Below are positions 5,653 to 35,207 of a DNA stretch of 37,827 nucleotides, piece by piece. This stretch comes from a virus (taxonomy: Duplodnaviria > Heunggongvirae > Uroviricota > Caudoviricetes): IMG/VR virus record IMGVR_UViG_2534681663_000017, positions 1-37,827 of that record. The stretch is one strand, 5' to 3'. The position numbers and the translations under genes were made by a program. The notes under the pieces are model-generated. The model searched no databases. It had not been told where the DNA came from and saw only the letters and a list, made by a program, of their open reading frames with translations. The number at the start of each line of letters is the position of its first letter. Within the stretch, counting starts at the first letter, position 1.

Positions 5653-8063
5653 GTCATGCCGATATGAGCGACTCTAGCGGCTTTAACGAGGCCGCTGCAG
5701 CATTTTCATGGAACGGCCCGAAAAAGGCCATAAACCCTTATCTGGACCCGGCGGAAGTTGCGCCGGTTTCTGCGCTTTCAAACCTGATCACTCTGTATGC
5801 TGCCGATAACGAGCAGGAACAGCTGCGCCGCGAGGAATTGAGTGAACAGGTCTGGGAGCGTTATTTCTTTAATGAATCCCGTGATCCTGTCCAGCGCGAA
5901 ATGGAGCAGGATAAGCTCATTAGTCGGGCAAAGCTGGCGCATGAGCAGCAGCGTTTTAACCCGGACATGGTCATTCTGGCGGACGTCAGCGCCCAGCCCA
6001 CCCACATCAGCAAGCCGCTGATGCAACGTATCGAATACTTCAGCAGCCTGGGCAGGCCAAAGGCTTATTCCCGCTATTTGCGTGAGACGATTAAGCCATG
6101 TCTGGAGCGACTGGATTGTGTACGCGACAGTCAGCTATCTACTTCTTTCCGTTTTATGGCAAGCCATCAAGGGCTGGAGGGCCTGCTGATCCTGCCTGAA
6201 ATGAGTCAGGATCAGGTGAAACGCCTGTCCACCCTGGTAGCTGCGCATATGAGCATGTGTCTTGAGGCCGCTTGTGGTGATTTGTATACCAACGATGACG
6301 TAAAGCCAGAAGAAATCCGCAAGACATGGGAAAAGGTGGCAGCGGAAACCCTGCGTCTGGATGTTATCCCGCCTGCGTTTGAGAAACTTCGTCGGAAAAG
6401 AAACCGCCGCAAACCTGTGCCCTATGAACTCATACCGGGTTCGCTGGCACGTATGCTTTGCGCCGACTGGTGGTATCGAAAATTGTGGAAGATGCGTTGC
6501 GAATGGCGGGAAGAGCAGTTGCGTGCTGTCTGTCTGGTCAGCAAAAAAGCATCTCCCTATGTCAGCTATGAAGCCGTGATGCATAAACGTGAGCAGCGCC
6601 GCAAGTCGCTGGAGTTTTTCCGTTCTCATGAACTGGTGAACGAAGACGGAGACACGCTGGATATGGAAGATGTGGTAAACGCCAGCAGCAGCAACCCGGC
6701 ACATCGCCGCAATGAGATGATGGCCTGCGTTAAAGGTCTGGAGCTTATCGCGGAAATGCGCGGTGACTGCGCCGTTTTCTACACCATCACATGTCCGTCA
6801 CGTTTCCATTCCACGCTCAATAACGGCAGGCCCAACCCGACCTGGACAAATGCGACGGTAAGACAAAGCAGCGATTATCTGGTCGGCATGTTTGCTGCAT
6901 TTCGTAAGGCGATGCACAAAACCGGGTTGCGCTGGTATGGCGTACGGGTGGCTGAGCCGCACCATGACGGTACTGTGCACTGGCATCTCATGTGTTTCAT
7001 GCGCAAAAAAGACCGCCGCGCCATTACTGCATTGTTGCGTAAGTTTGCCATCCGTGAAGACCGCGAGGAGCTGGGCAATAACACGGGCCCACGCTTTAAG
7101 TCTGAGCTGATAAACCCACGCAAAGGAACGCCGACAAGCTACATCGCAAAATACATCAGTAAGAACATTGACGGGCGTGGTCTGGCTGGCGAGATCAGCA
7201 AGGAAACGGGTAAATCCCTGCGTGATAACGCCGAATACGTTAATGCCTGGGCGTCTCTGCATCGTGTTCAGCAGTTCCGCTTCTTTGGTATTCCGGGGCG
7301 CCAGGCTTACCGTGAACTGCGATTGCTGGCTGGTCAGGCGGCAAGACAACAGGGTGACAAAAAAGCAGGTGCGCCGGTACTGGATGATCCGCGTCTTGAT
7401 GCCATCCTGGCTGCTGCTGATGCTGGTTGTTTTGCCACCTACATCATGAAGCAGGGCGGCGTACTGGTTCCCCGCAAATATCACCTTATCAGAACAGCTT
7501 ATGAAATTAACGAAGAGCCGACTGCCTATGGCGATCACGGTATTCGTATTTATGGCATCTGGTCACCCATTTCAGAGGGCAAGATCTGCACTCATGCAGT
7601 GAAGTGGAAAATGGTTCGTAAGGCCGTTGACGTTCAGGAGGCGGTAGCCGACCAGGGCGCTTGCGCCCCTTGGACTCGTGGCAATAACTGTCCCCTTGCT
7701 GAAAATTTGTACCAACAAGGGAAAGACAAATCAGCTGATGGGGGCTCCAGAACGGACATTACCCGCATGGATGACAAGGAATTGCACGATTACCTGCACA
7801 GTATGAGCAAAAAAGATCGCCGGGAGCTGGCAGCAAGGTTGCGCTTGGTGAAACCGAAACGGCGTAAAGACTACAAACAGCGAATTACAGATCATCAGCA
7901 TCAGCAGCTCGTCTATGAACTGAAGTCCAGAGGATTTGATGGCAGCGAGAAAGAAGTCGATTTGCTCCTTCGCGGTGGCAGTATTCCGTCAGGAGCAGGC
8001 TTGCGTATCTTCTATCGGAACCAGCGTTTGCGGGAAGATGATAAGTGGCGGAACCTGTATTAA
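5649..8063 (+). CDS. A: Replication initiation endonuclease, P2 gpA family (rolling-circle initiator)
   Basis: 804-aa ORF; HUH-like metal motif [11 protein letters not shown] and paired-tyrosine region YIAKYISKN, as recalled for P2 A; start overlaps dam stop (ATGA). Confidence 0.9.
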
Positions 8064-22468: not shown

Positions 22469-22824
22469 CGCTTTATAGCGGGATGAACAATACCAGCGGT
22501 AAAGCCATTACTGATATTGACCATCTGCGCCAGTCGGTGCGGGACATTCTGCTGACACCGCAGGGTAGCCGTATTGCCCGTCGTGAATATGGTTCCCTGC
22601 TGTCGGCACTGGTAGACCAGCCACAAAATCCGGCATTACGTCTGCAGGTCATGTCGGCAGTGTATGTGGCGCTGAGTCGCTGGGAGCCACGGCTGACGCT
22701 GGATTCCATCACCATCAACAGCAACTTTGACGGTTCTATGGTGGTGGAGCTGACCGGGCGGCGGAATAACGGTGTGCCTGTGTCCCTTTCCGTATCAACA
22801 GGAGCAGAGAATGGCAGTGATTGA
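22465..22824 (+). CDS. W: Baseplate protein, P2 gpW family
   Basis: 119 aa, GGAGG upstream, coupled to V and J. Confidence 0.8.
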   Translation: MTLYSGMNNTSGKAITDIDHLRQSVRDILLTPQGSRIARREYGSLLSALVDQPQNPALRLQVMSAVYVALSRWEPRLTLDSITINSNFDGSMVVELTGRRNNGVPVSLSVSTGAENGSD

Positions 22825-23719
22825 CCTTTCGCAGTTGCCTGCACCGCAGATTGTGGATGTGCCGGACTTTGAGATGCTGCTTGCCGAACGCAAGGCAGAA
22901 TTTGTGGCGCTTCATCCGAAAGATGAGCAGGAAGCAGTGATCCGCACGCTGGAACTGGAATCTGAACCCGTCACCAAATTGTTGCAGGAGAACGCTTATC
23001 GTGAGTTGCTTCTGCGCCAGCGCATTAACGAAGCCGCGCAGGCGGTGATGGCGGCTTATGCCATAGGGAGCGATCTGGACCAGCTCGCTGCCAATTACAA
23101 CGTGAAACGCCTGACGGTGACGCCTGCTGATGATGACGCTGTGCCGCCCGTTGCAGCTGTGATGGAAAGCGATGAAGCGTTACGCCTGCGTGTGCCTGCA
23201 GCCTTTGAGGGGCTTTCAGTTGCGGGGCCAACTGCAGCTTATGAATTTCATGCCCGAAGCGCCGACGGTCGGGTGGCGGATGCCAGTGCAACCAGTCCGG
23301 CACCTGCAGAGGTGGTGCTGACTGTCCTTAGTCGCGAAGGCGATGGAACAGCAGAAAAAGACTTGCTGGATGTGGTGGAGAAAGCCCTGAACAGTGAGAA
23401 CGTCCGCCCGGTGGCTGACCGTCTGACGGTTCGCAGCGCAGAAATCATCCCGTACCGCGTGGAAGCCACCATTTTTCTCTATCCGGGACCGGAAGCCGAG
23501 CCGGTAATGGCAGCGGCAAAAGCCAGCCTGCAGAAGTACATCGCCAGTCAGACGCGGCTTGGTCGGGATATTCGCCGTAGCGCCATTTTTGCCGCCCTGC
23601 ATGTTGAGGGTGTGCAGCGTGTGGAGCTGGCTTCGCCGTTGGCGGATGTGATCCTGAACAAAACGCAGGCGGCATCATGTACGCAGTGGAGCGTAACCAA
23701 CGGAGGAACGGATGAATAG
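22811..23719 (+). CDS. J: Baseplate protein, P2 gpJ family
   Basis: Start ATG 22811 (MAVIDLSQLPAPQ), GGAGCAGAGA upstream; 302 aa. Confidence 0.8.
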   Translation: MAVIDLSQLPAPQIVDVPDFEMLLAERKAEFVALHPKDEQEAVIRTLELESEPVTKLLQENAYRELLLRQRINEAAQAVMAAYAIGSDLDQLAANYNVKRLTVTPADDDAVPPVAAVMESDEALRLRVPAAFEGLSVAGPTAAYEFHARSADGRVADASATSPAPAEVVLTVLSREGDGTAEKDLLDVVEKALNSENVRPVADRLTVRSAEIIPYRVEATIFLYPGPEAEPVMAAAKASLQKYIASQTRLGRDIRRSAIFAALHVEGVQRVELASPLADVILNKTQAASCTQWSVTNGGTDE

Positions 23720-24317
23720 TCTGCTGCCACCGGGTTCAACGCCACTGGAGCGCCGACTGGCGCAAGCGTGTAGCGGGATTTCTGATCTGCAGGTGCCGCT
23801 GCGTGACTTGTGGAATCCGGCAACCTGTCCGGTCAGTTTCCTGCCTTATCTCGCCTGGGCGTTCTCTGTGGATCGCTGGGATGAGGGCTGGACAGAAAGC
23901 GTCAAACGCCAGGTGGTGAAGGATGCTTTTTATATTCATCAGCATAAAGGAACCACCAGTGCCGTGCGGCGGGGGGTGGAGCCGTTCGGCTTTCTGATCC
24001 GCATTATTGAGTGGTGGCAGACCGGAGAGACACCGGGCACGTTTCGCCTGGATATCGGCGTGCAGGACCAGGGCATCACTGAAGATACCTATCTGGAACT
24101 TGAGCGACTGATAAGCGATGCCAAACCATGTAGCCGTCACATGATCGGCATGTCCATCAATCTGCAGACCAGCGGCCCGCATTGGGTGGGAGCCGCCAGC
24201 TATCTTGGCGAAGAAATCACGATCTATCCGTATATCAACGAAACAATTATTTCCGGCGGCACCGCGCATGAAGGCGGGGCGGTCCATGTTATTGACACAA
24301 TGAGAGTGAATCCATGA
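23712..24317 (+). CDS. I: Baseplate/tail-fibre attachment protein, P2 gpI family
   Basis: 201 aa, coupled to J and H. Confidence 0.75.
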   Translation: MNSLLPPGSTPLERRLAQACSGISDLQVPLRDLWNPATCPVSFLPYLAWAFSVDRWDEGWTESVKRQVVKDAFYIHQHKGTTSAVRRGVEPFGFLIRIIEWWQTGETPGTFRLDIGVQDQGITEDTYLELERLISDAKPCSRHMIGMSINLQTSGPHWVGAASYLGEEITIYPYINETIISGGTAHEGGAVHVIDTMRVNP

Positions 24318-25705
24318 GCACAAAATTTTATACCCTGCTGACGGATATTGGCGCGGCGAAACTTGCCAGCGCCACCGCGCTCGGTGTGCCGCTAAAAATT
24401 ACCCATATGGCGGTGGGCGATGGCGGCGGAACATTGCCAACGCCGGACGCAAAGCAGACTGCACTGGTAAATGAGAAACGCCGGGCTGCGTTGAATATGC
24501 TCTATATCGACCCGCAGAACAGCAGCCAGATTATTGCTGAACAGGTGATCCCTGAAAACGAGGGCGGTTGGTGGATACGTGAAGTGGGCCTGTTTGATGA
24601 ATCAGGTGCATTGATTGCCGTGGGCAACTGCCCGGAAAGCTACAAGCCGCAACTGGCTGAAGGCAGCGGGCGTACCCAGACCGTGCGCATGGTGCTGATT
24701 ACCAGCAGCACGGACAATATCACCCTGAAAATCGACCCTGCTGTAGTGCTGGCAACCCGCAAGTATGTGGATGACAAGGCACTGGAGCTGAAGGTGTACG
24801 TGGATGACCTGATGGCAAAACATCTTGCCGCGCCGGACCCGCATTCACAGTATGCACCCAAAGAAAGTCCAACGTTTACCGGAACCCCCAAAGCGCCAAC
24901 GCCAGCGGCGGGGAATAATACCACGCAGCTTGCGACCACCGCATTTGTTCAGGCGGCACTGACGGCTCTTATTAATGGTGCGCCAGCCACGCTGGACACG
25001 CTGAAAGAAATAGCCGTAGCCATTAACAATGATCCGAAATTCAGTACCACCATTAACAATGCGCTGGCACTGAAAGCGCCGCTGTCGAGTCCGGCACTCA
25101 CTGGAACGCCAACAGCCCCCACTGCGGCGCAGTCGGTCAATAATACACAGATTGCCACTACGGCTTTTGTGAAATCAGCGATTGCAGGAATAGTGGGTTC
25201 TGCACCTGCGGCACTGGATACACTGAACGAACTGGCGGCGGCACTGGGGAATGACCCGAACTTTGCCACGACAATGCTTAATGCACTGGCAGGTAAACAA
25301 CCGCTGGACAATACGCTGACTAATTTGAGTGGAAAGGATGTAGCTGGTCTTCTCACATACCTTGGTTTGGGAGAAGCCAGATATGTCATTCAGCGAGGAG
25401 CTAATGCCAATGGTGCATGGGTACGCTGGTCAGATGGTGCAATAGAAGTATTTGGAACCGGTGGATCTAATGATAATGGACTGGCTAAAGTCGTTTACCC
25501 AATTGCACTGCCTAAACTTTCACGTTTTATCAGTATCGCAGAAAGAATAAGAACGGATTACGAGAGCACACCTAATAATGTTCACGTTTCAATGATCGTG
25601 GATGATCAGGTAACAAATACCGGCTTTTATGCCCGCTGCCAGATGTACGACGGCAGACCATCATCAAATGCTTTTTCATGGAGGGTTTATTGTGCGCCTG
25701 TTTAA
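24314..25705 (+). CDS. H: Tail fibre protein, gpH family; C-terminal ~110 aa encoded inside an invertible segment
   Basis: 463 aa; internal ~60-aa tandem repeat (SPxxTGTPxAPT...TTQxATTAFV...LDTL...NDPxFxTT) at about 24869..25290; recombination site at codon ~346. Confidence 0.85.
   Translation: MSTKFYTLLTDIGAAKLASATALGVPLKITHMAVGDGGGTLPTPDAKQTALVNEKRRAALNMLYIDPQNSSQIIAEQVIPENEGGWWIREVGLFDESGALIAVGNCPESYKPQLAEGSGRTQTVRMVLITSSTDNITLKIDPAVVLATRKYVDDKALELKVYVDDLMAKHLAAPDPHSQYAPKESPTFTGTPKAPTPAAGNNTTQLATTAFVQAALTALINGAPATLDTLKEIAVAINNDPKFSTTINNALALKAPLSSPALTGTPTAPTAAQSVNNTQIATTAFVKSAIAGIVGSAPAALDTLNELAAALGNDPNFATTMLNALAGKQPLDNTLTNLSGKDVAGLLTYLGLGEARYVIQRGANANGAWVRWSDGAIEVFGTGGSNDNGLAKVVYPIALPKLSRFISIAERIRTDYESTPNNVHVSMIVDDQVTNTGFYARCQMYDGRPSSNAFSWRVYCAPV
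24869..25290 (+). repeat. In-frame tandem repeat (two ~60-codon units) within tail fibre gene H
   Basis: Protein-level repeat SPTFTGTPKAPTPAAGNNTTQLATTAFV...DPKFSTTINNALA / SPALTGTPTAPTAAQSVNNTQIATTAFV...DPNFATTMLNALA. Confidence 0.6.
25350..25375. promoter_or_regulatory. Left recombination site (gix/hix-like, 12+2+12) of the invertible segment
   Basis: TTCTCACATACC TT GGTTTGGGAGAA; 22/26 match to the reverse complement of the site at 27036..27061; lies inside H at ...LTYLGLGE. Confidence 0.65.
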
Positions 25706-25889
25706 TCCAGTTACTTTGACTGAAGTAATCCCCGGTCTTCATGACGTGACCGGGGCTATTGAATTACCGGAGGACAACTGGTTTTTTACTATGACAGAAA
25801 TTCCTCAGGGCATGGAGCTAACAATTAATGAGAAAGGCGAACCAATACTGATTGAGGTTAATCAGTCTCAGGGAATACAGGCCAAATAA
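25692..25889 (+). CDS. Short ORF downstream of H in the current orientation (possible small or truncated tail-fibre chaperone)
   Basis: GTG 25692 with GGAGGG 6 nt upstream; only 65 aa, far shorter than typical tail-fibre assembly proteins; overlaps the convergent minus-strand gene by 32 nt. Confidence 0.3.
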   Translation: MRLFNPVTLTEVIPGLHDVTGAIELPEDNWFFTMTEIPQGMELTINEKGEPILIEVNQSQGIQAK

Positions 25890-26463
25890 TATCAGGCGCG
25901 GTGCTGGTATCTATTGCCGTCACCGCGTCAATGTAATCCAGCACAGCGTTAAGGCGGGTTGTTTCTGCCTGCGTCAGTTTACGTCCGGCCTGCAATTTCA
26001 GCTGAATCAGACTGATGGAAGCCATAGCAGCATCAATCAGAGACTGGCGCTGTACTTCTGCTGCATCTACTGCGGCGCTATGCTGTGCCTCGGTATCTGT
26101 TACCCATTTCTCACCATCCCATTTATCGTATGGCGTTAATGGGGCAAAAGTGGTCGTATTTTCAGGGTAATCCCCCGGCACAGTAATTTCTTTTGATTCC
26201 CCCGTTTCGATGCCATAGACAATTTCACCGCGATGGTCTGACACATATTCCCATGAGTTAAAATCTGCAGAACGGCAGATTGCATAACCAGCCTTATGTG
26301 TGCCGGGCGCATCGGTACAGGAATTGGCAGGAATACCCACCCCCACAGGCAGATACTCAACCGATGAGGATATGTATTCGCGGGTGTCGCCCCGGTAGTT
26401 GTACACAGTGATTTCTCCTGCCACGGTGGCAATAAACGCACTGTTTAATTTTGCTTTCGCCAT
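25858..26463 (-). CDS. Tail fibre assembly protein (Tfa/U'-like) in the inverted-orientation cassette
   Basis: 201 aa; C-terminal region ...RLNAVLDYIDAVTAIDTSTAPDIIWPVFPE resembles the conserved Tfa C-terminus; start overlaps the stop of the upstream alternative fibre segment (TAATG). Confidence 0.7.
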   Translation of the reverse strand: MAKAKLNSAFIATVAGEITVYNYRGDTREYISSSVEYLPVGVGIPANSCTDAPGTHKAGYAICRSADFNSWEYVSDHRGEIVYGIETGESKEITVPGDYPENTTTFAPLTPYDKWDGEKWVTDTEAQHSAAVDAAEVQRQSLIDAAMASISLIQLKLQAGRKLTQAETTRLNAVLDYIDAVTAIDTSTAPDIIWPVFPETD

Positions 26464-27061
26464 TATGCAGCCCTCACGATGTAGTTAAATGCAATGTTGC
26501 GCGGACGGGTTTCAGATGCGTACACGGACGGATGAGTAACACCGTCTGAGGTCGATGCCCTGTAAGTCCTGAATGGTGGTAATCCGGTCGCTATTGCGTT
26601 GTTATTACCTGTTGGTGAAAGGTCCTTGCGATAAAGGATTACCTTGTCTGCCCTACTGGTTGCGTCCCATGATGTTCCTGACGACGATGGACTCAGGGCC
26701 GCACTGGGTATTTCTGGTACATCGTTGAAAACCGCATAGATATCGCTTTCCATCTGGTCTGACGGATTACCCACTCCGGTTGGCAGAGCGTGCGCATGGT
26801 CCTGGAAAGCAAAACTCTGACAACTGAGAAGTATGCGCCCCTCATCAATCCCTCGCCCGTCATCCCAGCCACGAATAAACTCACCACGTAAATCTGGCAA
26901 TTTATTTGTCGGGTAAGCCTTTGCCAGTTCCGGGTATTCTTCAGCAGAAAAAGCCGCACCATTGCATTTCAGCCAGCCTGTTGGCGGAGTGGCTGAAGGC
27001 CACGGAACAGGGACACCAACAGGTAATGCAGAGCCTTCTCCCAAACCAACGTTTATGAAAA
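26463..27061 (-). CDS. Alternative tail-fibre C-terminal segment (Sv'-like, tail-collar-type motif); no independent start, expressed only after inversion
   Basis: Minus-strand reading frame carries GLGE at the crossover then ...LPVGVPVPWPSATPPTGWLKCNGAAFSAEEYPELAKAY...LPDLRGEFIRGWDDGRG, a phage tail-collar-like pattern; frame is open through the right gix-like site. Confidence 0.6.
27036..27061. promoter_or_regulatory. Right recombination site (gix/hix-like) of the invertible segment
   Basis: TTCTCCCAAACC AA CGTTTATGAAAA, inverted relative to the left site, 55 bp upstream of the invertase start. Confidence 0.65.
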
Positions 27062-27116
27062 TGCAGAGATAATGGCTAACTGGCATCATCCCCGGTTTTT
27101 ATTCAGGGGGATGCTC

Positions 27117-27683
27117 ATGCTTATTGGCTATGTACGCGTGTCAACAAATGACCAGAACACCGATTTGCAACGTAATGCACTGAACTGCGCGGGATGTGAG
27201 CGGATTTTTGAGGATAAAATCAGTGGCACTAAGTCCGACAGACCAGGGTTGAAAAAACTGCTCAGGACACTATCGGCAGGAGACACGCTGGTTGTCTGGA
27301 AGCTGGACAGGTTGGGGCGCAGTATGCGGCATCTTGTTACGCTGATAGAAGAGTTGCGTCAGCGAGGCGTGAATTTCCGAAGCCTGACTGACAGTATTGA
27401 TACCAGCACCCCAATGGGCCGTTTCTTTTTTCATGTCATGGGTGCCCTGGCTGAAATGGAACGCGAACTGATAGTTGAACGTACCAGGGCAGGGCTGGCT
27501 GCAGCTCGTGCCAAAGGCAGAGTAGGTGGACGCCGTCCTAAGTTGACCACCGAACAGTGGGCACAGATTGGGCGTTTACTCGAGGCCGGAGAATCAAGAC
27601 AGCGTATTGCACTGATTTTTGATGTGGGCGTTTCTACCATTTATAGAAAATTTCCGGCGAATGAGAACAATGAATCGCCCTGA
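27117..27683 (+). CDS. Serine DNA invertase (Gin/Hin/Pin/Cin family)
   Basis: Starts MLIGYVRVSTNDQNTDLQRNAL... (ATG 27117, GGGGGA upstream); near-identical by eye to Mu Gin as recalled, including catalytic Ser in YVRVST and a C-terminal HTH. Confidence 0.9.
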   Translation: MLIGYVRVSTNDQNTDLQRNALNCAGCERIFEDKISGTKSDRPGLKKLLRTLSAGDTLVVWKLDRLGRSMRHLVTLIEELRQRGVNFRSLTDSIDTSTPMGRFFFHVMGALAEMERELIVERTRAGLAAARAKGRVGGRRPKLTTEQWAQIGRLLEAGESRQRIALIFDVGVSTIYRKFPANENNESP

Positions 27684-27731
27684 GTCAGCATTATTTTGAT
27701 TTTTCCTGTAAGCGGACAAATACCGTTATTT

Positions 27732-27749
27732 TGTGTGAATAACGACACA
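27732..27749. promoter_or_regulatory. TGT-N12-ACA dyad (late-activator site) upstream of tail sheath gene
   Basis: TGTGTGAATAACGACACA; centre is 85 bp upstream of the FI ATG. Confidence 0.45.
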
Positions 27750-27825
27750 ACTGCGCTTAGCTGTTTGTCAGGCACAATCACTTCAACATAGGGCGAAGCC
27801 TAATCCAATCAGGAGGTTCGCCACT

Positions 27826-28998
27826 ATGGCTCAGGATTACCACCACGGAGTGCGCGTTGTTGAAGTCAACGAAGGCACCCGAACCATTACCACGGTGAGC
27901 ACCGCCATCGTGGGTATGGTCTGCACGGGCGATGATGCCGATGCAAAAATGTTTCCTCTTAATAAACCCGTGCTGATCACTGATGTGCTGACTGCCAGCG
28001 GTAAAGCGGGTGAGTCCGGCACGCTGGCCCGTTCGCTGGATGCCATCGCTGACCAGGCAAAACCCGTGACCGTTGTTGTGCGTGTGCCGCAGGGGGAAAC
28101 GGAAGAAGAAACCACGACCAATATCATCGGCGCAGTGACTGCTGAAGGTAAAAAAACAGGCATGAAAGCTCTGTTATCTGCACAGTCACAGCTCGGCGTT
28201 AAACCGCGCATTCTCGGCGTGCCAGGCCACGATAACAAAGCCGTTGCGACTGAGTTGCTGAGCGTGGCGCAAAGCCTGCGTGGGTTTGCTTACCTGTCAG
28301 CGTATGGCTGCAAGACAGTGCAGGAGGCGATCACTTACCGCGAAAACTTCAGCCAGCGCGAAGGGATGCTGATCTGGCCTGACTTTACTGGCTGGGACAC
28401 GGTGCTGAATGCCGAAGCAACGGCATATGCCACCGCTCGTGCGCTCGGTCTGCGCGCCAAAATTGATGAGCAGACCGGGTGGCACAAAAGCCTGTCCAAC
28501 GTGGGCGTGAACGGTGTCACCGGAATTTCTGCTGATGTGTTCTGGGATCTGCAGGACCCGGCAACCGATGCAGGTCTGCTTAACCAGAACGACGTTACCA
28601 CGCTTATCCGCAAAGACGGTTTCCGCTTCTGGGGTTCCCGCTGTCTGAGCGATGATCCGCTCTTTGCCTTCGAAAACTACACCCGAACCGCGCAGGTACT
28701 GACGGACACGATGGCAGAAGCGCACATGTGGGCGGTAGACAAACCGCTGAATCCGTCGCTGGCTCGCGACATTATCGAAGGTATCCGCGCCAAAATGCGC
28801 AGCCTGGTCAGTCAGGGGTATCTCATTGGTGGTGATTGCTGGCTGGACGAGTCGGTGAACGACAAAGACACTCTGAAAGCCGGGAAACTCACGATCGACT
28901 ACGACTACACGCCAGTGCCGCCACTTGAAAATCTGATGCTGCGCCAGCGCATCACCGATCAGTACCTGGTGAATTTCGCCAGCCAGGTCAGCGCGTAA
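27826..28998 (+). CDS. FI: Contractile tail sheath protein, P2 gpFI family
   Basis: 390 aa, AGGAGG upstream; size and position match P2 FI. Confidence 0.9.
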
Positions 28999-34972: not shown

Positions 34973-35207
34973 CGCTGCCGCCATTTTGTCGCCATCGTTA
35001 AAAAACAGTGCTTCTAACATCATGATCTTAAACACCATAAATTTCAGGCAACAAAAAACCCATCAACCTTGAACCGAAATGGCGGGGGTGATGGGCTCCA
35101 CAAAATGGGGACATCAAAGAAAAGCAGTGGCACTAATTAAGACTGATGCCCTGCGGAAAAGTTCTGCGGTTGTGCAAAAAAATTTCATTTTCAGGGCAAC
35201 TTCAGTT

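Follow-up and report, generated by a model that had tools for sequence, protein, structure and literature searches.

Why does an invertible tail-fibre segment carry a full-length chaperone gene behind one of its two fibre tips and an open reading frame (ORF) of only 65 amino acids (aa) behind the other? The question is raised by IMG/VR virus record IMGVR_UViG_2534681663_000017 (Caudoviricetes), a stretch of 37,827 nucleotides (nt) that we refer to as the window. Its nearest public DNA lies in Escherichia coli chromosomes, with at most 99.2% identity over 2 kb, and the host element is a P2-like E. coli prophage, apparently complete. A first-pass annotation had described a Gin/Hin-type invertible cassette in the tail-fibre gene H of this element and had offered two explanations for its unequal partner genes: either the two states differ in chaperone requirement, or the chaperone of the current orientation is degenerate. 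Our analysis makes it very probable that H contains a working switch of the Gin/Pin family and that the 65-aa gene is a selected partner of the tip it follows, here called tip A.

The invertible segment and its two fibre tips

Gene H occupies 24314-25705 on the plus strand and in the present orientation encodes 463 aa, beginning with the Phage_tail_fib domain PF12571 (residues 1-150, E 1.3e-65). Its constant part, residues 1-354 (24314-25375, +), is common to both orientations, and the present and flipped proteins have the same sequence through ...LLTYLGLGE. The present orientation continues into tip A, the 109 residues from 355 to 463 (25376-25705, +), which matches the C-terminus of phrog_2557 (E 3e-16) and, weakly and below the family cut-off, Gp53-like_C (PF21882; E 0.0027, 18.6 bits where 24.9 are required). 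No match to tip A was returned by a sequence search of solved structures. The alternative tip B, 190 aa plus stop, lies on the minus strand at 26463-27035 and after inversion would be fused to H residue 354, giving an H of 544 aa. It carries a tail-collar domain (PF07484; 57 bits against a cut-off of 24, E 1.8e-15), and it is related at the DNA level to the stf-tfa region of HK97 and HK106. The collar ORF as listed extends further, over 26463-27089 (-), and this extension is an artefact because the reading runs across the crossover site. Behind tip B stands a 201-aa Tfa protein (25858-26463, -), a clear member of the tail-fibre assembly family Caudo_TAP (PF02413, E 2.1e-30, 106 bits against a cut-off of 22.1; phrog_105, E 7.6e-96), whose start overlaps the tip B stop and which would be expressed together with tip B after inversion. 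All the ORF lengths and positions first listed are correct, and the asymmetry of chaperone genes between the orientations is real.

The segment is bounded by two 26-bp crossover sites of the gix/pix type. The top-ranking inverted-repeat pair of the region, 25350-25376 with 27035-27061, is 27 nt long and 85% complementary, with arms 1,658 nt apart. Within it, the left site (25350-25375) reads TTCTCACATACC-TT-GGTTTGGGAGAA, with its TT core at 25362-25363, and the right site (27036-27061) reads TTCTCCCAAACC-AA-CGTTTATGAAAA, with its AA core (TT on the other strand) at 27048-27049; reverse-complemented, the right site becomes TTTTCATAAACG-TT-GGTTTGGGAGAA. Both sites therefore have a 12+2+12 architecture with imperfect half-sites and identical cores, stand in inverted orientation, and flank a segment of 1,686 bp. 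The inner half-site GGTTTGGGAGAA occurs in exactly two copies in the 37.8-kb window, one on each strand and both at the crossover sites; by our own arithmetic about 0.005 occurrences would be expected by chance for a given exact 12-mer on both strands of the window. The repeat search and the uniqueness of this half-site confirm the two sites, and the interval of about 1.7 kb between them, that had been read from the sequence at the outset.

The left site lies within H codons 346-354 and forms the last 26 bases of the constant part; the right site precedes the invertase start by 55 nt. In a DNA alignment that runs on into the invertase gene, the right site matches gixR of phage Mu, upstream of gin, position by position. 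The left site includes TTGGTTTGGGAGAAG, an inverted repeat of the P segment of element e14, and the right site together with its two preceding bases (27034-27049) includes CCTTCTCCCAAACCAA, likewise a P-segment repeat (PMC12529663). The e14 P segment has been inverted experimentally by PinE, PinQ and PinR (PMC12529663).

The invertase gene itself (27117-27683, +; 188 aa, with ATG 27117 as its most likely start) lies outside the invertible segment and encodes a protein of the resolvase/HTH_7 type. Invertases of the Gin, Hin, Cin and Pin group are small serine recombinases (about 190 aa) that join an N-terminal catalytic domain, acting through Ser9 or Ser10, to a C-terminal helix-turn-helix. In keeping with this description, the protein contains PF00239 (E 2.2e-53) and PF02796 (HTH_7), shows 77% identity to Mu Gin in an ungapped alignment of 181 residues, and scores 311 bits over residues 1-183 against the Mu Gin structure 3UJ3. 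Its N-terminus, MLIGYVRVSTNDQ (MLIGYVRVST), retains the catalytic serine. The Gin, Hin and Cin systems further depend on a recombinational enhancer with two sites for the Fis protein in the 5' part of the invertase gene. Here the expected enhancer region would be 27117-27300, a candidate by its position alone; the 5' stretch of the gene has about 81% column identity to Mu gin DNA.

Inversion of the segment can be followed both in silico and in nature. When the segment is flipped between the core dinucleotides, H residue 354 joins the collar ORF in frame to give an H of 544 aa (...LLTYLGLGE followed by GSALPVGVPVPWP...), and the Tfa start overlaps the tip B stop (TAATG). Indeed, an annotated 544-aa H in E. 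coli strain 61 matches this flipped protein. In strains 64 and 61, sister environmental isolates from Switzerland, the prophage occupies identical chromosomal coordinates, and the segment is oriented oppositely in the two. Their differences are confined to the interval between the crossover sites, and once the segment is flipped back no mismatch is left over 5,001 bp. Both orientations are also common among related viral contigs, and among 5,426 complete E. coli genomes the junction of H with tip A is found in 36 and that of H with the collar tip in 375. For P2-like E. coli prophages, Goldberg et al. (2014; PMC4272514) report coexisting orientations demonstrated by sequencing and polymerase chain reaction. 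The identification of a Gin/Hin-type invertible cassette is thus borne out by the site architecture, the similarity of the invertase to Gin, the gixR alignment and the precise inversion between two isolates.

We also observed two viral loci in which the segment takes part in a larger arrangement. Locus L040 (565-7749) and locus L047 (1-4796) each hold one segment composed of tip A, the 65-aa ORF, Tfa and the collar tip between two facing, complete modules of genes W, J, I and the constant part of H. The facing modules belong to two different P2-like phages, and no invertase is present between them. Such an arrangement would result if an invertase had recombined two prophages, the first at its right site and the second at its left, an event that would produce a large chromosomal inversion and would switch on both fibres; these two loci may also be assembly chimeras.

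The 65-residue gene behind tip A

The 65-aa ORF (25692-25889, +) starts with GTG 3' of tip A, overlaps the H stop by 14 nt and is preceded by a Shine-Dalgarno sequence, GGAGGG, that ends 6 nt before the start codon; its translation is probably coupled to that of H. Among 5.8 billion proteins searched, 123 homologues were found, nearly all of 57-91 aa together with a few shorter fragments. Their identity to the window protein ranges from 53 to 100%, with a lower end of 59-61% among members of 57-66 aa. The named homologues come from the Enterobacterales (E. coli, E. marmotae, Enterobacter, Salmonella, Citrobacter, Hafnia, Pseudescherichia, Xenorhabdus and Erwinia), and the exact 65-aa sequence occurs on about 1,000 contigs. 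All sources call the protein hypothetical, and a literature search for its accession, its PHROG number and its N-terminal motif found no paper.

Conservation at the DNA level indicates that this small gene is real and under selection. A degenerate DNA pattern derived from the window recovered 45 further loci (3 genomic and 42 viral), including those of Erwinia aeris and Intestinirhabdus alba. When the window and two E. coli loci are counted in, the reading frame is intact in 45 of 46 loci, the exception being a frameshifted copy (L013). All copies retain GGAG[GA]G at the same distance from the start, and the length is 59-69 aa wherever the frame could be read to a stop. The other two forward frames carry stops in 44/46 and 46/46 loci. 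Selection was measured on codons 18-54, a stretch touched neither by the search pattern nor by the overlaps with neighbouring genes: the ratio of non-synonymous to synonymous polymorphism (pN/pS) is 0.30, and the median ratio of the corresponding substitution rates (dN/dS) among unsaturated pairs is 0.21. A family that is conserved, is under purifying selection and provides the sole gene behind H in relatives with a fixed fibre leaves the proposal of a degenerate chaperone unsupported. The conserved family and its sole occupancy of the post-H position in those relatives instead favour the proposal that the two states differ in chaperone requirement.

At their 3' ends, the 65-aa ORF and the convergent 201-aa Tfa gene share 32 nt (25858-25889); similar convergent overlaps of 10-32 nt occur at related loci. 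Because of this overlap the last 10 codons of the ORF are antisense to the Tfa C-terminus, and these codons are the non-conserved part of the 65-aa family.

The gene is tied to tip A and not to the invertible segment. A tip A homologue (35-100% identity) directly precedes the ORF, with the same overlap geometry, in 45 of 47 loci; of the two exceptions, one (L022) has no tip A match and the other (L045) is a contig that begins at the ORF. The module of tip A and ORF is present in 116 of the 5,426 complete E. coli genomes. Moreover, six P2-like phages, among them that of Erwinia aeris (L005; the others are L016, L020, L026, L031 and L034), carry the module without an invertase, a Tfa gene or an alternative tip, in the gene order J-I-H(tip A)-small ORF-FI-FII. 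Since the small ORF is the sole gene between H and FI in these six phages, it takes the place of P2 gene G, and no other gene there is a candidate fibre partner. In P2-like phages the gene G in that position encodes an assembly factor.

In invertible loci the same module is paired with different alternative cassettes: a collar tip with a 201-aa Tfa, other tips with a Tfa of 133-144 aa, tips without any chaperone gene, and one multi-site arrangement. The chaperone-less alternatives are a glycine-rich 244-aa tip in L018 (+433 to +1167 relative to the small ORF) and a 444-aa H in L030. In L028 the module lies within about 4.4 kb between the two gix-like sites found, together with several tip-like ORFs, a stretch that may represent the multi-site arrangement. 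Directly after the stop of the 69-aa homologue in two of the non-invertible phages, L026 (at about 6470-6500) and L020 (at about 2005-2035), we note a gix-like sequence, TGATACAAAACCTCGATTTATGGGAA, which may be the scar of a lost invertible segment.

How, then, does the 65-aa protein relate to the Tfa chaperones? Its sole family assignment is phrog_5400, for which no function is assigned (E 1.4e-25), and it covers profile positions 1-66 of 145; this partial coverage is explained by the existence of longer relatives of 108-147 aa. PF02413 matched neither the window ORF nor any of 25 short-form members (24 of 57-66 aa, and P0120, called at 91 aa), even at E<=10. The protein also lacks the conserved C-terminal helical domain ending in W-P..P. 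With neither this C-domain nor a score at threshold, it fails Caudo_TAP membership.

Its N-terminal relationship is a different matter. The modular view of Tfa proteins, as given in the part of PMC9608196 that summarises the TfaMu structure, holds that a variable N-terminal domain binds the fibre tip and proposes a conserved C-terminal helical domain for trimerisation. Two longer proteins, gene_1 of Cronobacter phage JK004 (128 aa) and P0137 (131 aa), are Caudo_TAP members (PF02413, E 1.4e-20 and 3.2e-20) that also fall in phrog_188, "tail fiber assembly protein". End to end, the 65-aa family profile aligns with residues 1-57 of the former (E 8.6e-11) and residues 1-58 of the latter (E 9.6e-16), with E values set at a database size of Z=1e6. 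It also matches P0144 and P0136, in which the same N-module is joined to other chaperone-like C-termini; across all four proteins the match covers the first 41-58 residues at E 1e-10 to 1e-15. The 65-aa proteins end about 10 residues past this module, and their tail beyond residue 55 is non-conserved. JK004 gene_1 lies directly behind a Gp53-like_C tip, a position comparable to that of the 65-aa ORF behind the weakly Gp53-like tip A. On this sequence evidence the 65-aa ORF is homologous to the N-terminal fibre-binding module of short Caudo_TAP chaperones. The comparison with Tfa N-terminal domains suggested in the first-pass annotation thus succeeds for one subclass of short Tfa, represented by JK004 gene_1 and P0137, and fails for the 201-aa partner Tfa. 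When the ORF family was aligned by hhalign with the N-domains of partner-type Tfa proteins, the probability was 2%, and we therefore take the two to be unrelated.

Some apparent relatives of the ORF were rejected. Two giant repeat proteins, P0121 (2,709 aa, 15 matching stretches) and P0129 (1,373 aa), were returned by phmmer at E 2e-32 through repeats of about 80 residues (LNLSNDLT...DLTLDDFDF...). This signal is spurious because many weak repeats are summed, and the family profile gives E>1 for both proteins. In the other multi-repeat phmmer matches no single stretch is significant. The case is a caution for searches with short queries.

Mechanism and competing explanations

The proposed mechanism, up to the reading-out of a tip and its partner, is based on the sequence, natural variants and what is established about Gin-type systems; the later steps we infer. 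The invertase would recombine the two 26-bp sites at their TT/AA cores and thereby flip the 1,686-bp segment. In the present orientation, H residues 1-354 continue into the 109-aa Gp53-like tip, followed by the 65-aa gene, and in the flipped orientation into the 190-aa collar tip, followed by the 201-aa Caudo_TAP chaperone. Transcription and translation entering from H would accordingly read either tip A with the 65-aa gene or tip B with the 201-aa Tfa. Since the two orientations carry a different tip and partner, the phage would alternate two receptor-binding tips and, with each of them, a dedicated partner gene. Beyond this point, the enhancer and Fis are predicted to take part in inversion, the 65-aa protein would bind tip A as a minimal assembly factor or as a distal cap, the Gp53-like tip A would need no conserved Tfa C-domain, and inversion would change the host range.

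Several results weigh against a working switch with a selected tip A partner. The natural inversion was seen at a locus 98% identical to the window and not on the window's own DNA molecule. A scan of the 5' region of the invertase gene for Fis-like 15-mers (G-N13-C) gave candidates at 27213-27227 and 27260-27274 and no decisive pair at the canonical 48-bp spacing. The 65-aa ORF has no Pfam or NCBIfam match reaching threshold, and its family profile finds no sequence relative among solved structures. Single-sequence AlphaFold2 models were unusable both for the ORF (predicted local distance difference test score, pLDDT, 50.8) and for tip A (pLDDT 41.4). The divergence of tip A and that of the ORF are correlated (Spearman 0.76), as would be expected from linkage alone. 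Finally, a Xanthomonas phage has a tip A-like C-terminus and no such small ORF annotated among the genes that follow it; the tip A type can therefore exist without the small ORF.

There are several alternative explanations. One is that the switch in the window prophage is a fossil, its parts intact-looking and its segment no longer inverting. The single orientation in the window and the failure to pin down the enhancer would fit a fossil, but the invertase is full length, aligns with Gin without gaps and keeps its catalytic N-terminus, the inner half-sites are perfect and the cores match at both sites, and a nearly identical locus has inverted precisely between two sister isolates. In addition, the sites match those of chromosomal Pin enzymes, which could act in trans, and we consider a fossil very unlikely. 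An even weaker case can be made for the 65-aa ORF as a decaying Tfa remnant whose 3' half disappeared in a tail-to-tail joining of two cassettes, leaving tip A unpartnered or non-functional. Such a history is suggested by the relatives of 108-147 aa, which have the same N-module plus a chaperone-type C-domain, by the overlap of the last 10 codons with the convergent Tfa gene and the lack of conservation past residue 55, and by the frameshifted copy in L013. Decay is nevertheless difficult to reconcile with an ORF that stays open in all the other loci over identities of 53-100% with the alternative frames closed, with a dN/dS of about 0.2, and with the conserved start codon and Shine-Dalgarno sequence. 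The short form is moreover found in the non-invertible phages as the sole gene between H and FI, where its 3' end is not overlapped, and no remnant of a Tfa C-domain was found downstream of the ORF on the same strand in these fixed phages. We give this explanation almost no credence.

It is also highly improbable that the 65-aa protein has nothing to do with the fibre and travels with the cassette as, for instance, a regulatory, exclusion or lysogenic-conversion peptide. No library annotates a function for it, and proteins made from the e14 fibre locus after inversion can block the adsorption of other phages (PMC12529663), two points in favour of such a role. The adjacency to tip A and overlap with its stop in 45 of 47 loci, the homology to the N-module of bona fide tail-fibre assembly proteins and the occupation of the gene G slot in fixed phages all oppose it. 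A more serious, though still doubtful, alternative holds that tip A folds by itself and that the 65-aa protein is not needed for folding, remaining instead on the fibre end as a cap or adaptor, where it would influence receptor recognition or shield the tip. This would suit a protein without the domain thought to drive trimerisation, and in two related segments, those of L018 and L030, the alternative tip comes without a chaperone gene. P2-like gene G in the same position is, on the other hand, an assembly factor, and our data do not separate a cap role from a folding role. TfaMu stays on the mature fibre (PMC9608196), and fibres are reported to differ in chaperone dependence, some being active without a chaperone, with chaperones proposed as transient caps (PMC10579305). 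We give an even chance to the proposal that the 65-aa proteins are natural "half chaperones", in which the Tfa N-module for fibre binding works alone, without the conserved C-domain thought to drive trimerisation. Weighing these explanations, we retain a working switch in H with the 65-aa gene as the selected partner of tip A.

Surroundings, significance and known systems

The switch lies in the tail module of the P2-like prophage, which spans about 22-29 kb of the window. Upstream of H are gene J (22772-23719) and gene I (23712-24317, PF09684), and the sheath gene FI (27826-28998) follows the invertase. A scan of 25300-27900 for promoters and terminators found nothing exceeding shuffled expectation. 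Just right of the last prophage genes and left of a 561-aa chromosomal ORF lies a full-length gene for the small RNA RybB (35050-35128, -), which scores 100 bits with RF00110 (cut-off 40). When the RybB area was compared with the integrase end at 441-660, no att-type direct repeat exceeding 10 nt was seen. We further note that the homologous invertible locus of E. coli W, KO11FL and a record labelled DH5alpha (H41-H44) is broken by an IS3-family transposase, according to RefSeq annotation.

The switch itself is nothing new. Fibre inversion of the Gin/Pin type in Mu, P1, e14 and P2-like prophages is textbook knowledge, and it has already been shown experimentally in E. coli. The value of the locus is modest and lies mainly in annotation, in fibre engineering and in studies of Tfa function. 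A widespread "hypothetical protein" can be reannotated as the probable cognate partner of one class of fibre tip, related to only the binding half of Tfa chaperones, and transplants of tip A into engineered phages or tailocins should include the 65-aa gene. The 65-aa family is also a small and tractable system in which to test the modular Tfa model of a binding N-domain and a trimerising C-domain. Because the sites are identical to those of the e14 P segment, host Pin enzymes could flip the prophage fibre in trans, and the prophage invertase could likewise flip e14. If the 65-aa protein is indeed a half chaperone, the Tfa C-domain would be dispensable for Gp53-like tips, a single segment would alternate a chaperone-dependent fibre with one that needs only a small binding module or cap, and the system would be a minimal one in which to separate fibre binding from trimer nucleation in Tfa function.

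By sequence comparison the switch is closest to the e14 P segment in its sites and to Mu Gin in its enzyme. It resembles the Mu G segment in having an invertase 77% identical to Gin just outside the segment, 26-bp sites of 12+2+12 architecture with the right site in the same position, and an inversion that swaps the fibre C-terminus together with a downstream partner gene (S/U against S'/U' in Mu). The two differ in that Mu has a TC/GA core and a 3-kb segment in a Mu-like backbone, whereas the core here is TT/AA and the segment is 1.7 kb in a P2-like backbone. They differ also in their partner genes: U and U' of Mu are of nearly equal length (175 and 177 aa), whereas a 201-aa Tfa here stands opposite a 65-aa protein that consists of the N-module only. 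With the 1.8-kb e14 P segment of E. coli K-12 the window shares the crossover sequences TTGGTTTGGGAGAAG and CCTTCTCCCAAACCAA and the presence of fibre C-termini and Tfa genes within the segment. The K-12 element is, however, a defective lambdoid element with two Tfa genes, tfaE and tfaP, and not a P2-like prophage with a 65-aa partner. Some e14-like elements with pinE (H59 and H60) do carry the cassette of tip A and small ORF. The P2-like prophage loci of enteropathogenic E. coli E2348/69 are alike in phage type and mechanism; one of them has three sites and four variants, against two sites and two variants here, and partner genes are not described in the text searched of Goldberg et al. (2014; PMC4272514).

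The 65-aa ORF resembles the Caudo_TAP proteins (U of Mu, or TfaMu, P2 G and lambda Tfa) in its position directly after the fibre gene and in an N-module homologous to that of short members, and it differs from them in lacking the W-P..P helical C-domain that the family model mainly recognises. Pam3 gp25 and the chaperones of Alteromonas phages V22 and A5, as described in PMC9608196 and PMC10579305, provide a precedent for a small beta-rich fibre-binding module, for distal caps and for dispensable chaperones. They keep the helical trimerisation domain, and we set them beside the 65-aa protein by description only. Among these systems, a fibre partner that consists of the N-module alone is an undescribed variant, whose function as a partner of tip A we infer.

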